Below are positions 12,305-16,522 of a stretch of DNA of 32,000 nt, piece after piece. This DNA comes from an archaeon (lineage in GTDB: Archaea; Asgardarchaeota; Thorarchaeia; Thorarchaeales; Thorarchaeaceae): the NCBI GenBank assembly GCA_024275415.1, contig JAJRZD010000077.1, positions 1 to 32,000 on the forward strand, in the 5' to 3' direction. The position numbers and the translations under genes are program-made. Position 1 is the stretch's first letter. Each line of letters begins with the position of its first letter. The notes below the pieces were generated by a model that saw only the letters and a list, made by a program, of their open reading frames with translations, was not told the DNA's origin and searched no databases.

Positions 12305-13468
12305 TCACACCTGTCTTGTTGTGACCCCGCCCGGAATCGAGATCTTAGTGACAGTGGGAATATTTCCCGTCTGGCTTTCGTATTCTCTTGAAATAGTATC
12401 CATGAACGTACGCATGTTCCTCTCCTTGACTAATGCGATGATATTTCCCCCGAGCCCAGCGCCAGACATGCGTGCACCCAATACGCCATCAATTCTACTT
12501 GAAGATTCAACTAGGAGGTCTAGATTCGGATGTGATACCTCGTATAGGTCACGTGAAGACGCATGGGACTCTTTCATGAGTTCACCAAATCGTGCCAAAT
12601 CTCCTTCTTTAATTACTGCAGCTCCCTCCTTGACACGTGCATTTTCCATCACGATATGTCTGACACGATCGCTCTCAGTTTCATCGAGGATGTCATCTAC
12701 CTGAACAAGCTGGGCGTTGCTCACCTCGCTTAGACTGTGGATGTCCCATCCGCTTTCTTGCAAATGGTTCAGGGCCTTGATGCACTCACTTCTTCTTCTG
12801 TTGAGCACATCGCTCGCCTCCCTTGAAACCATCGAATCAATCACAACAAATGACGCTTCAAACTCGAATGGGATGTCGTAGGTGTGCATACTTCTACAAT
12901 CAATCCCTAGCAGGGCGTCTGATTTTCCAAGCTGCGATGAGAACTGGTCCATTACTCCGCACGAGATACCACAGAACACCCTCTCAGCTTCGAATGCTAG
13001 CATTGCTGCTGATTTGGGTCGTATACGCAATCCATTCAATGCAGAGATGAGGTTGAGAAGTGATACTTCCAACGCTGCGGACGAGCTCAATCCTCCTCCA
13101 ATAGGGATATTTCCATGAACCACCGCAGAAACGCTTCTGAAGTCGTATCCTCTTCTAGCGAGTGCCCACAGAACCCCTTTCACATATTTCTGCCATGTGT
13201 CGTCCGGCTCTAAGACTATCTGGATTGGATCCACGGAGAGGCTTTCATCCATATCCAATGCATACAGTGTGGTTCGCTCTGACAGTGTTCCTACCGACCA
13301 GATGTATCTGTCAATTGTGGCTGCAAGCACGAAACCTGCATTGTAATCAGTGTGATTCCCGAGCACCTCGATCCTTCCTGGTGCCCTTGAGCAATACACA
13401 TCCTGCCCTGATACATCCACTAAGTCTGAGAGATAATGAATCATACCCTCAAGCGTAATCGAATTCAT
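12305..13468 (-). CDS. galK: Galactokinase
   Basis: RAPGRIEVLGNHTDYN, GHMP motif PIGGGLSSSAA, CGVMDQ and GARMSGAGLGG. ATGA overlap with the galT stop. Confidence 0.95.
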   Translation of the reverse strand: MNSITLEGMIHYLSDLVDVSGQDVYCSRAPGRIEVLGNHTDYNAGFVLAATIDRYIWSVGTLSERTTLYALDMDESLSVDPIQIVLEPDDTWQKYVKGVLWALARRGYDFRSVSAVVHGNIPIGGGLSSSAALEVSLLNLISALNGLRIRPKSAAMLAFEAERVFCGISCGVMDQFSSQLGKSDALLGIDCRSMHTYDIPFEFEASFVVIDSMVSREASDVLNRRRSECIKALNHLQESGWDIHSLSEVSNAQLVQVDDILDETESDRVRHIVMENARVKEGAAVIKEGDLARFGELMKESHASSRDLYEVSHPNLDLLVESSSRIDGVLGARMSGAGLGGNIIALVKERNMRTFMDTISREYESQTGNIPTVTKISIPGGVTTRQV

Positions 13469-14043
13469 ATAGCGTCCCTCAGCTCTTTTGCCTTCTCTTC
13501 AGGAGAAGAGTCATTTGTGAATGTCCATGCCCCCGATTCGACACCTGCTAAGTATTTCAACCGTGCCCTGTCTCTCCAAGGCGGATAGAACTCCACATGG
13601 AAATGCCAGTAATCGTGATTGCCCCGCGTTGGGCGTGTGTGAAGAACCATCACATATGCCAGCTCGTCAAAAACCGCAGCAAATCGTTTGATCGTATCCG
13701 CAATGATCTCCCCGAACTCTCCGATGGTATTTTCAAGATCGCTGATACTCTGGACATGCTTTTTTGGATAGATATGTACCTCGTAAGGAAGTCTGGCCCC
13801 ATATGGGATTAGGGATATGAAGTGTTCGCTGTCATTGATCACCCGCTCCCTTGTCTTTAGCTCATTCTTAATGGCGTCACAGACAAGACAGAGACCCACT
13901 TCATCAAGGTAGTGCTTGAACTGATCAATCTCGGTTCTGACACGTGGGGGGATGAATGGTAGCGCATATGCCTGAGCATGAGGGTGGTTGAGGCTGACCC
14001 CGATTGCTTTCCCTCTATTCTCGAACTCCAGCACATATTCGAT
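13465..14043 (-). pseudogene. galT: Galactose-1-phosphate uridylyltransferase, 3' fragment (interrupted by insertion)
   Basis: IEYVLEFENRGKAIGVSLNHPHAQ (HPH nucleophile motif) and HFHVEFYPP...KYLAGVESG. It joins the 5' fragment in frame when 2119 bp are removed. Confidence 0.93.
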
Positions 14044-14126
14044 ACCCCCTCGTCCTACTGCTACGAATTGCCAACGGCTTACCCCGTTCGTTGGCAACTT
14101 TGCAGGACGGACGAAAGGGAGGGGGC
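14044..14126 (-). ncRNA. Candidate 83-nt hairpin RNA (or ssDNA hairpin) at the distal end of the insertion
   Basis: Three stacked stems of 7, 8 and 11 bp with three G.U pairs that work only on the minus strand. It starts about 24 nt downstream of a TATA box and ends on the junction T. Confidence 0.5.
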
Positions 14127-14149
14127 GACTCGATAGCACTTTTTTCATC

Positions 14150-14157
14150 TTATATAA
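14150..14157. promoter_or_regulatory. Palindromic TATA box TTATATAA (potentially bidirectional) inside the passenger DNA
   Basis: Self-complementary 8-mer, 24 nt from the hairpin 5' end on one side and 29 nt from ATG 14186 on the other. Confidence 0.5.
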
Positions 14158-14185
14158 TCCTCACGCTGTGCCAGGACAGGTGGAC

Positions 14186-14305
14186 ATGCCTTGGAGAAAC
14201 GACGACTATACTTTCCAGTTCGAGGAGGAAGAGGAGGTCGCGGCTGTCATGGACGACGACGGGGAAGTGCTTGCCGTCGCCTATAGAGACCCTGACTTTA
14301 TCGAC
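14186..14305 (+). pseudogene. 5' fragment (40 codons) of an acidic foreign-looking gene, truncated at the IS607 right end
   Basis: AGGTGG RBS-like site, then MPWRNDDYTFQFEEEEEVAAVMDDDGEVLAVAYRDPDFID. 14 of 40 residues are D/E and 8 of 8 Asp codons are GAC. The coding character stops at the CC core (14305-14306). Confidence 0.55.
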
Positions 14306-14480
14306 CGTTGCCCGAAACTTACCCAAATGGGACAGTATTCCCAATGGTGTTCGGTTCCTGATTCATCGAGGTCTGCTCGGTTGTCAACCCCGAAGGATCG
14401 ACTAGGAGTCTCGTGTCCTCTCCACAGGCGTTTTGTGTCTCCGTCCAACTGGCGGCGACCAGATTATTCGCAGCATTCAA
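14285..14480 (-). ncRNA. Predicted TnpB omega RNA (scaffold overlapping the tnpB 3' end plus about 20 nt of guide); boundaries approximate
   Basis: Inferred from the known IS605/IS607 architecture, where the omega RNA overlaps the tnpB 3' end and the right end and the guide is the flanking DNA. Not directly observed. Confidence 0.55.
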
Positions 14481-15548
14481 GTCACGGTCAATGACCAGTC
14501 CACATTTCTCACAGACATATGTTCTGTCTGACAGTGTGAGATCCGTCTTGATATGACCGCAACCTGAACACATCTTACTCGATGGGAAGAACCTCGGAGC
14601 TATCACCAACTCAGAGCCATACCATAGGCTCTTGTACTCTAGCTGTCTTCTCATCTCCCAAAATCCCACGTCAGCGATGTTTCTCGCAAGTCTATGATTC
14701 TTCATCATCCCAGACACATTCAAGTCCTCAATCACTATCCGGCTGTGGTTCTTGGCCAGTCGTGTTGTCATCTTATGAAGTGTGTCTTGTCTGATATTAC
14801 GGATCTTGAGGTGAAGTCTAGCCAGTTGTCTCTTGGCCTTCTCTCGGTTCTTAGAGCCTTTCTTCTTTCGTGATAGTTGCCGTGATAATCTCCTCAACTT
14901 TCGTAGTCTGCTGTCCAATGCTCTGGGATTAGAGAACGTTTCTTTCTCAGATGTCACAGCCAGACGCTTGATCCCTACGTCAACTCCAATAGCAGGGCCA
15001 TCATTTATCGGGACTTCAATCTCTTCCTCTACAGCCACAGAAACGAACCATCTATCTGCTGTTCTTGAGATTGTGGCCGATAGGATTCTTCCAGAATGAT
15101 ATTGCTCTCGTTTCTCCTTGATGCGTATCCTACCGATTCTTGGAAGTTGTATTGTATGTCCAATAAACCTGATCGTCCCAGTTAGTCGGAAACTATCATG
15201 TACTCCTTTCTTTTTGAACTTCGGAAAACCAGCATTCTTCGCTCCATTTCTAATCCTACGAAAGAAGTTCTTGAACGCCTTATCAAGATCCCTTAGAGCC
15301 TCTTGTGGTGCACATTTGGAACATTGATACATCCATGAGAACTTGGTTTTCTTCAGACTGTTCAAAAGTTTATGTTGTTTCATGGCATCAGTGAATCTGT
15401 TATTCCCTTGGTTATTCTTGTATAGAGTGATACGTTGCTCAAGACCCCAGTTATATGCGAACCTTGCTACACCAGCATGTCGTGAAAACATTGTCCGTTG
15501 TTCATTGTTCGGATCAAGTTCATATTTGTATGCCATGAAGACCATCAA
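14319..15548 (-). CDS. tnpB: TnpB RNA-guided endonuclease (IS607-associated)
   Basis: N-terminal AYKYELDPN...AGVARFAYNWGL. RuvC D (GVDVG), E (IVIEDL) and D (DRDLNAA) are all intact, with a zinc finger CSGC...CEKC. Confidence 0.95.
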   Translation of the reverse strand: MMVFMAYKYELDPNNEQRTMFSRHAGVARFAYNWGLEQRITLYKNNQGNNRFTDAMKQHKLLNSLKKTKFSWMYQCSKCAPQEALRDLDKAFKNFFRRIRNGAKNAGFPKFKKKGVHDSFRLTGTIRFIGHTIQLPRIGRIRIKEKREQYHSGRILSATISRTADRWFVSVAVEEEIEVPINDGPAIGVDVGIKRLAVTSEKETFSNPRALDSRLRKLRRLSRQLSRKKKGSKNREKAKRQLARLHLKIRNIRQDTLHKMTTRLAKNHSRIVIEDLNVSGMMKNHRLARNIADVGFWEMRRQLEYKSLWYGSELVIAPRFFPSSKMCSGCGHIKTDLTLSDRTYVCEKCGLVIDRDLNAANNLVAASWTETQNACGEDTRLLVDPSGLTTEQTSMNQEPNTIGNTVPFG

Positions 15549-16108
15549 CCTTTTTTAGCAGCCTCCAATGCCCGTTTAGCACGATTCCTTGCAGAGCGCT
15601 GTCCATATAATCTTGCACAGAAACTTGTCAGAACATCAATCATATCTTGAACAAGGTCATTAACACATTCTGTTTGGTTTATTACTCTGATCTCTCTACC
15701 ACATGATTCAAGTGCATGAGAAATATATTCAAAACCAAATCTTGTCAGTCTGTCCTTATGCTCTACGATTATGATAGATGCAGACGGGTCCTTCAATATG
15801 TCCAACATCTTCTTTCGTTTCCCGTTCATTCCAGAACCGATCTCTGTTACCTCTTTTATGATTGTTAGACCATTAGAAGCAGCATAATCCCGAAGTCTTT
15901 GTAATTGTCGTATCAGATCTTCCTTTTGAGATGTAGAAGAAACACGGGCATAAAGAACAGCATTATTTGTAATGGTTGGGATCTCATGGACAAGAATAGT
16001 ACCCGTTGCTAGTTGTTCTGTTGGTCTTGGAAGATTTCCAGACCTATACAAACGGTAGGCTGTTTTATAATCAATCCCATGTTTTCTTGCCCAATCAGAT
16101 AGTTTCAT
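15545..16108 (-). CDS. tnpA: IS607-family serine transposase TnpA
   Basis: N-terminal MerR-like HTH (MKLSDWARKHGIDYKTAYRLY), catalytic YARVSS, EIGSGMN, EHKDRLTRFG and DVLTSFCARLYG. Confidence 0.95.
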   Translation of the reverse strand: MKLSDWARKHGIDYKTAYRLYRSGNLPRPTEQLATGTILVHEIPTITNNAVLYARVSSTSQKEDLIRQLQRLRDYAASNGLTIIKEVTEIGSGMNGKRKKMLDILKDPSASIIIVEHKDRLTRFGFEYISHALESCGREIRVINQTECVNDLVQDMIDVLTSFCARLYGQRSARNRAKRALEAAKKG

Positions 16109-16126
16109 GTATATCAATCCATATTA

Positions 16127-16143
16127 GGTATTATTTGGTATTA
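16127..16143 (-). repeat. IS607 left-end direct repeats (TAATACC x2, 10-bp period)
   Basis: GGTATTA occurs at 16127-16133 and 16137-16143 on the + strand. IS607 TnpA is known to bind short direct repeats in the left end. Confidence 0.5.
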
Positions 16144-16162
16144 ATCTTTTCTACTGTTGTTA

Positions 16163-16522
16163 ACCCTCTTTTGCCTCAAGATCATTGAATACTCTGATAT
16201 ACTCCCGAAAGACCTTCTCCAATTGAGCCCTATCCATCATCTCAATCTGTCTGTCGTGTTCACGGGACTCGATGATGACCTTACAGTACCCGTGCGCACT
16301 GGTTCCTATGACCAATTCTGAGTCCAAACGTACAGGGTGATCATCGGGCTGGAGCGCAGCATACCTGTTTTTGAGAGTAAGAACCTCCCAGTCGCCTTTG
16401 GTTTCCGGTTGTCCTGGGCAGAAGGGACAAGGTCTCTTTTCGTCCTGAAACGGTCGTGTCGCTCGGTTAGGTGTCACAATGACCCATTCACCAAGCATGA
16501 TATTCCATCGGAGTTCAGCCAT
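16163..16522 (-). pseudogene. galT: Galactose-1-phosphate uridylyltransferase, 5' fragment (120 codons, then a stop supplied by the IS left end)
   Basis: MAELRWNIMLGEWVIVTPNRATRP, CPFCPG, NRYAAL and GYCKVIIESREH are GalT N-terminal motifs. Confidence 0.93.

Follow-up and report, generated by a model that had tools for sequence, protein, structure and literature searches.

In a Thorarchaeota archaeon, galT is interrupted by a single block of 2119 bp (14045-16163), in which a complete IS607 element, with tnpA, tnpB and a RAGATH-18-like guide-RNA scaffold, is followed by 258 bp of additional DNA (hereafter the passenger) beyond its canonical right end. The evidence supports the entry of the IS and the 258 bp into galT as a single unit, bounded by GG at both junctions. 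We propose, with a probability of roughly two in three, that the transposase recombined the left end of the IS with a target-like site lying 258 bp outside the right end, and that the resulting circle of IS plus flank entered galT. The locus is probably a rare natural record of an IS607 element carrying neighbouring DNA when it moves. Coordinates refer to the window, which is the whole 32,000-nt stretch of DNA analysed, and the features are collected in Table 1; every gene of the galK-galT region is on the minus strand.

Table 1. Features of the galT locus and of the composite insertion, in window coordinates
Feature	Coordinates	Strand	Basis or remark
galK	12305-13468	-	
galT 3ʹ part, residues 120-312	13465-14044	-	PF01087 positions 150-184 and PF02744; overlaps galK start
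Outer junction GG core	14045-14046	-	passenger ends GACGAGGG before GG; site reads GAGGGGG
Passenger, 258 bp	14047-14304		GC 54.3%; in no other IS copy, without detectable relative
Imperfect palindrome, base touching the outer junction	14047-14118		MFE -34.7 / -34.0 kcal/mol, z = -2.5 / -2.4
TATA-like palindrome TTATATAA, 28 nt ahead of ATG 14186	14150-14157		sequence; consensus scan flags TATAAT
Acidic 40-codon open frame, cut at the inner core	14186-14305	+	Asp 8/8 GAC; no homologue found
Predicted 20-nt TnpB guide, within the passenger instead of galT	14285-14304	-	predicted from published IS607 reRNA architecture (PMC11061315)
Inner, canonical right-junction GG core	14305-14306	-	GG in all family copies examined, divergence after
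Guide-RNA (omegaRNA/reRNA) scaffold	14307-14459	-	overlaps tnpB 3ʹ end, stops at canonical right end
tnpB, full-length RNA-guided nuclease gene	14319-15548	-	PF12323, PF01385, PF07282
tnpA, serine transposase	15545-16108	-	PF00239 Resolvase, E = 1.1e-18, residues 53-185
IS607 left end to tnpA ATG; begins TTAACAACAGTAGAA, two AATACC repeats	16109-16163	-	similarity to L003, L010, L036
Left-junction GG crossover core	16164-16165	-	host flank GAGGG = target and TAM-like motif
galT 5ʹ part, GalT residues 1-119	16166-16522	-	PF01087 model positions 11-150

When 14045-16163 was removed in silico and base 16164 was joined to 14044, a GalT of 312 aa was obtained, and its residues 1-312 aligned with the intact GalT of six relatives with 0 gaps and 62-72% identity. 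The two galT halves abut at position 150 of the Pfam N-domain model, and codon 120 is composed of two G at 16164-16165 and T 14044. The expectation that galT resumes only beyond the extra DNA was thereby confirmed, with resumption at 14044. The left junction reads ...AAAGAGGG|TTAACAAC, i.e., GAGGG|TTAAC, and the right junction reads ...GGACGAGGGGG|TATCGAA, i.e., ...GGG|GG|TATCG. No galT base was lost or duplicated at the insertion, and GG is found at both junctions; this combination of GG junctions with full conservation of the galT bases is the signature of insertion by an IS607 serine transposase (PMC6188088). The effect on the host is ordinary, being the inactivation of galT by a recent insertion. 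We also observed an ATG at 14148, within the passenger, that shares the reading frame of the galT 3ʹ fragment; the two form a fusion open reading frame of 227 aa (13465-14148, minus strand) retaining the HPH active-site region of GalT. As this frame still overlaps the start of galK, the captured DNA could affect galK expression.

The IS607 proper extends from 16163 to 14307, a length of 1857 bp to which the GG core is added; its two GG cores lie at 16164-5 and 14305-6. TnpA (187-190 aa) has about 50 N-terminal residues before the catalytic domain and the YARVSS catalytic serine motif, and it shares 82% amino acid identity with the TnpA of the related copy L003. The tnpB gene lies downstream on the same strand, its start overlapped by the tnpA stop; its own stop codon at 14319-14321 is followed by GTTTCGGGCAAC and then by GG 14305-14306, as the original prediction had placed them. 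Similarity of the left end to three other tnpA-linked copies (L003, L010, and L036) starts directly after GG. With a serine recombinase whose catalytic domain is C-terminal, the gene order tnpA-tnpB, GG at the junctions, and neither terminal inverted repeats nor a target-site duplication, the IS proper is a member of the IS607 family. The 2119-bp composite, of which the left end abuts galT and the right end lies 258 bp inside, has a family end on its left side only and is no standard member.

This IS is present as a single copy in its own MAG (93% complete) and is probably a recent arrival. The closest relatives found for the IS are 74% identical in DNA (L003), tnpB shares 67-74% DNA identity with the copies in relatives, and the best TnpB matches in the metagenome and genome collections have 69-70% protein identity. 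The nearest full-length relative, L003:1-990 (G006 contig C338), adjoins a cluster of tRNA genes numbering at least 10. When an empty site was sought, this genome contained no match to either flank of L003, so the L003 contig may in its turn belong to a virus or a mobile element.

The position of the canonical right end was determined by comparison with other family members. Homologous elements were detected at the DNA level in 16 of 60 related genomes, in all of which the matches stop at query position 1861-1874, corresponding approximately to window 14305-14292. In the alignment of relatives, ...GGGTAAGTTTCGGRCAAC is common to the copies and is followed by GG, beyond which all sequences diverge. 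Copies ending at ...AAGTTTCGGRCAAC|GG with unrelated downstream DNA numbered 19 from relatives and 12 from metagenomes, and in Thorarchaeota MAGs 45 of the 46 motif matches ended in the same way, also with unrelated DNA downstream; the lone exception was an unrelated chance match. This family-wide end ...AAGTTTCGGRCAAC|GG lies at 14307|14305-6 in the window. The inner end is therefore the real right end of the family, and it lies 258 bp inside the unit. Two nested right ends had been predicted, and the inner of them is the canonical one, with the IS and the 258 bp inserted together. Had the extra segment been a native part of the element, homologous copies would be expected to extend to 14045; 0 of about 75 do so.

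The outer junction is of a different kind. The last 60 nt of the IS, its first 60 nt, and the predicted circle junction were each compared with the passenger, and the Smith-Waterman scores fell within those of 1000 dinucleotide shuffles (p = 0.08-0.96). A likeness of the outer 40 nt to both IS ends, noticed by eye (GGGTAAG..GGCAA for the right one, CAGTAG for the left), was likewise attributable to chance by the shuffles. The insertion-site logo derived from 44 distinct left junctions of the family is (G)AGGG directly before the left end (A in 35/44, G in 39/44, G in 43/44, and G in 42/44). This logo is identical to the GAGGG TAM published for some bacterial IS607 TnpBs (PMC11061315) and to the galT target at this locus. 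Judged from these letters, the outer site (GAGGG followed by GG) is target-like, not end-like, and the idea of a cryptic distal right end has to be given up in favour of a match to the target motif. The crossover register at the outer site (GAGGG+GG) is 2 nt off the usual GAG[GG] register. [quoted passage not shown]

The passenger differs from the IS in composition. Its GC content is 54.3%, in line with the approximately 54% counted originally, compared to 42.7% in the IS core and 47.0% in the genome, and it falls within the top 2.8% of the genome's 258-bp windows, which is high relative to both IS and host, yet not extreme. The acidic open frame of 40 codons, described earlier as the beginning of a gene cut at the GG core, was confirmed as an open frame from ATG 14186. 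All eight of its Asp codons are GAC, as against 44% GAC in the long ORFs of the genome (P = 0.0014), and its GC3 is 0.70 as against 0.50 in the genome. The TATA box postulated in the passenger was also found, as a sequence element. The TATA-like box and the candidate gene start would fit a promoter and gene start from a GC-richer replicon, which is a fit and not a proof. Of the terminal hairpin, the palindrome itself was recovered at the outer junction; its folding is modest (see the z values in Table 1) and about equally stable on both strands, hence not strand-specific. The description of the element as cargo-bearing was an overstatement for a 258-bp fragment that contains no complete gene. 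The 40-codon frame reads through the inner right end to 14494 on the plus strand, giving 102 aa in total with no stop, and this read-through (14186-14494) lies opposite the scaffold of the guide RNA and the 3ʹ end of tnpB, in antisense orientation to both. If active, the TATA-like box would yield an RNA antisense to the guide RNA.

To find where the passenger came from, we searched the host genome, related genomes, and large public collections. The passenger was absent from all of the approximately 75 related IS copies in Thorarchaeota genomes and metagenomes, and neither blastn nor tblastx found it elsewhere in its own genome. Among 85 genomes of the same family, only low-complexity GAG-repeat matches were obtained with the passenger DNA (E > 0.006). 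For the 40-aa frame there was no match in its own genome and a best E of 0.18 in the family genomes; no relative was found within longer proteins in a set of 5.8 billion proteins, nor by peptide-pattern scans of genome contigs and metagenome contigs. The passenger matches no RNA family or intron in Rfam.

Several candidates were considered and rejected. A viral match (L035; 26 aa, 69%, in a phage portal protein) was assigned to chance, as it reached 36 bits and was seeded by an exact 8-mer among 2.9 million contigs; the portal PHROG model gave no match to the passenger. In a phmmer search against 1.8 billion representatives, P0001 and P0002 proved to be long repeat-rich proteins with many summed repeats and were rejected as compositional. 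A pattern of the hairpin stem had 30 matches in viral contigs, none of which was similar beyond the seeded stems. The passenger is also not an IS607 MITE, for it has no similarity beyond chance to the family ends, no other copy was found in any collection searched, and the real MITEs of the family (266-344 bp) are entirely different.

No donor locus, intact acidic gene, or second composite copy was found in any collection searched, and the extra DNA could not be identified as the flank of a donor locus. The collections are incomplete, so this result is no proof that the donor is absent. The original prediction placed the IS formerly inside a foreign gene. The nested ends and the single unit of that prediction are supported; the gene and its locus were found in no search, so the earlier location of the IS is hypothetical and that part stands as a reconstruction of history.

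IS607 is thought to excise as a circle by GG exchange and to integrate at GG in near-random DNA (PMC4058570, PMC6188088, PMC10690162). We propose that, at an earlier site, TnpA would have assembled on the left end and exchanged strands with a target-like GG located 258 bp outward from the right end, in place of the GG that belongs to that end. The two GG sites would have acted as direct repeats, so that a circle of IS plus flank with the joint ...GACGAGGGGG-TTAAC... would have been released, and this circle would then have integrated at galT GAGGG|T by a normal GG exchange. The G counts at both junctions fit a conservative exchange if, as we infer, the circle joint carried five G.

Flank capture of this kind is supported by the insertion of a single unit, the intact inner end, the absence of the passenger from other copies, and the target-like outer site. 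The single-copy state of the IS and the difference in GC between it and the passenger fit a recent arrival carrying DNA from elsewhere, and codon usage in the passenger frame departs from the host norm (P = 0.0014). As in flank transduction generally, the canonical end is kept internally, contiguous extra DNA extends to the new junction, and there was one insertion; unlike that of ISEcp1, the alternative end does not resemble the canonical end. Several points weigh against flank capture: no donor locus turned up in the collections searched, the closest IS relatives found have 74% DNA identity, the crossover register of the outer site is shifted by 2 nt, and the composite was seen once, with no clear second case of transduction among 76 other right junctions. 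In the one ambiguous pair among these junctions, L069:4244 and L167:1166 / L038 had the first 30 nt after the right end in common (97% identity) and diverged completely thereafter. This pair could represent a short flank carried over or a later rearrangement, and the break is not at GG.

Four other explanations were weighed. The first is that two separate events occurred at the same GG, either because a foreign 258-bp piece (e.g., a decayed small element) was first inserted in galT at GAGGG| and the IS later entered at its left boundary, or because the 258 bp were inserted later into the GG at the right junction of the IS. The junctions of each IS607 insertion are themselves good targets (GAGGG+GG), making repeat strikes conceivable, and miniature elements of 266-344 bp, near the size of the passenger, abound in the family. 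However, the passenger has no similarity to the family ends beyond chance and no part resembling a guide RNA. A mobile element would normally leave relatives, but no second copy of the passenger was found in the genome, the 85 family genomes, or the collections, and an unrelated insertion on exactly the same base pair is improbable. We consider the two-event explanation unlikely.

A small probability attaches to repair copying, in which a break in galT was mended with the IS and its flank from another replicon and GAGGG microhomology set both junctions. GAGGG is indeed present at the left host flank and again at the outer end of the passenger, and the double-strand breaks made by TnpB are repaired by recombination (PMC10690162). 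On the other hand, the predicted guide does not match galT, the galT bases are neither duplicated nor lost, and the junctions keep the GG rule with all bases conserved, as expected of an exchange by a serine recombinase.

It is highly improbable that the segment is a native, lineage-specific long right end and not captured DNA. The nearest copy found for comparison has 74% DNA identity, which leaves some room for such an end, and a TATA-like box with an open frame could in principle be a function borne by the IS. Against this, the canonical end and its GG core are intact inside the unit and the guide-RNA scaffold stops there; none of the approximately 75 family copies has anything similar, including L003, the nearest one with tnpA. 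Moreover, GC and codon use are sharply unlike those of the IS, and the frame is cut by the core and continues antisense to tnpB. Finally, an assembly chimera, in which the MAG contig would join reads of different molecules at the IS, is very unlikely indeed given that galT is restored exactly: mis-assembly is common at IS elements and the MAG has an estimated contamination of 4.5%, but a chimera would not return 258 bp later to the exact frame-restoring galT base, and the IS is single-copy in the assembly, leaving no repeat to collapse.

Flank capture, our preferred reading, has a consequence for the guide RNA of the element. The scaffold block, read from 14459 to 14305, is composed of a 5ʹ flank of 31 nt, a RAGATH-18-like core of 74 nt (14355-14428), and a 3ʹ flank of 50 nt, counted to the GG core at 14305-14306. 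The match of the core to Rfam RF03064 covers the full model (1-71) with 27.2 bits, which is below the gathering threshold of 44.9 bits; a RAGATH-18-like match occurs at the same relative position in L003 and L005, and the E-loop/k-turn-like CCUGUGGAG...CGAUGAAUCAGGAA is conserved. In an alignment of 14 sequences (A1), the stems were conserved and the scaffold was kept up to ...CAACGG, with variable sequence downstream in all copies. The terminal TTTCGG pairs with an upstream CCGAA, and one compensatory change was found in this CCGAA/TTCGG helix.

The reRNA of IS607 TnpB consists of a 5ʹ flank, a RAGATH-18 core, a 3ʹ flank of about 60 nt, and a guide of 20 nt, and its TAM is AGGAG or GAGGG, the latter in 4/22 strains (Ren et al. 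2024, PMC11061315). The order of 5ʹ flank, RAGATH-18-like core, 3ʹ flank, and predicted guide in the element described here follows that of these ISFba1-type elements, and their GAGGG TAM equals the left-flank logo. They differ in that the present element is archaeal and its Rfam score is 27 as against 44.9 bits; in addition, its scaffold of about 155 nt overlaps the 3ʹ coding end of tnpB, whereas that of the ISFba1 type lies wholly downstream (PMC11061315). As the scaffold ends at the inner right end, the predicted guide would be 14304-14285, inside the passenger. With its inner right end intact, the IS retains the capacity to excise alone; such excision would leave GAGGG plus the passenger, that is, a TAM plus a match to the predicted guide, and TnpB homing would thus be kept for the IS proper. 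For the composite it would be lost, because galT would be whole again after excision of the composite and would offer the predicted guide no match. If flank capture is general, the guide RNA need not target the site that the element last entered.

Reduced relatives of the element were also observed in Thorarchaeota MAGs. At least 26 miniature elements of 266-344 bp on contigs L156-L204 (e.g., L157:2907-3182, L163, L165, and L197) consist of a left end of the family type that leads directly into a complete guide-RNA scaffold with its right end. Each of these solo scaffolds precedes a different flank and therefore potentially has a different guide. A further seven to eight elements of 1.3-1.4 kb carry tnpB without tnpA, and one MAG has more than 20 such copies. 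In L036:170-445 / L200:707-982, the left end and the first approximately 40 codons of tnpA are fused directly to the guide-RNA scaffold and right end; this miniature is a product of internal deletion of an autonomous element.

IS607 elements and TnpB nucleases are found in all domains of life and are usually treated as minimal units that carry only themselves and leave no scar on excision. A natural composite in which the inner end is intact indicates that a GG outside the ends can, at least now and then, serve the serine transposase as a partner, and if this is general, IS607 gains a way to shuffle promoters and gene fragments. On balance we incline to the broader view that IS607 serine transposases can mobilise DNA adjacent to the right end by recombining the left end with a target-like GG, and that they may occasionally transfer promoters and gene fragments from one replicon to another; the 258 bp would then be a relic of an unsampled donor, possibly an Asgard virus or plasmid. 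Less probably, the captured TATA box may now act as a promoter, either for antisense transcripts of the guide RNA and tnpB or for transcription running outward into galT-3ʹ/galK. The locus offers a concrete substrate for the study of end choice, with the left end, the right end, and GAGGGGG 258 bp downstream.

Flank capture is well known for other transposon classes. The alternative right ends of ISEcp1/IS1380, the one-ended transposition of IS91/ISCR and Helitrons, and the 3ʹ transduction of LINE-1 share with this locus an inner canonical end and the carriage of adjacent DNA on one side. The chemistry differs, since ISEcp1, IS91, Helitrons, and LINE-1 use DDE, rolling-circle HUH, or retrotransposition mechanisms, whereas a conservative serine-recombinase crossover at GG is proposed here; moreover, the alternative end of ISEcp1 resembles an inverted repeat, whereas the outer site at this locus resembles a target. 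In the literature searched there was no report of flank capture or of one-ended or aberrant excision for IS607, and the 'one-ended transposition' of PMC3627910 concerns Helitrons and IS91.

Compared with the described members of its own family (IS607, IS1535, and ISC1926), the element has the same tnpA-tnpB order and the same Resolvase-type domain behind an N-terminal DNA-binding part, and it shares the lack of inverted repeats and target duplication, the GG junctions, and the G-rich target (G)GG (PMC6188088). The described members end at their own left and right ends, whereas the unit at this locus reaches a second GG, 258 bp further out than its right end. [quoted passage not shown] The model treats this reaction as one to be avoided and gives no example of it, and the locus described here would be its natural product.
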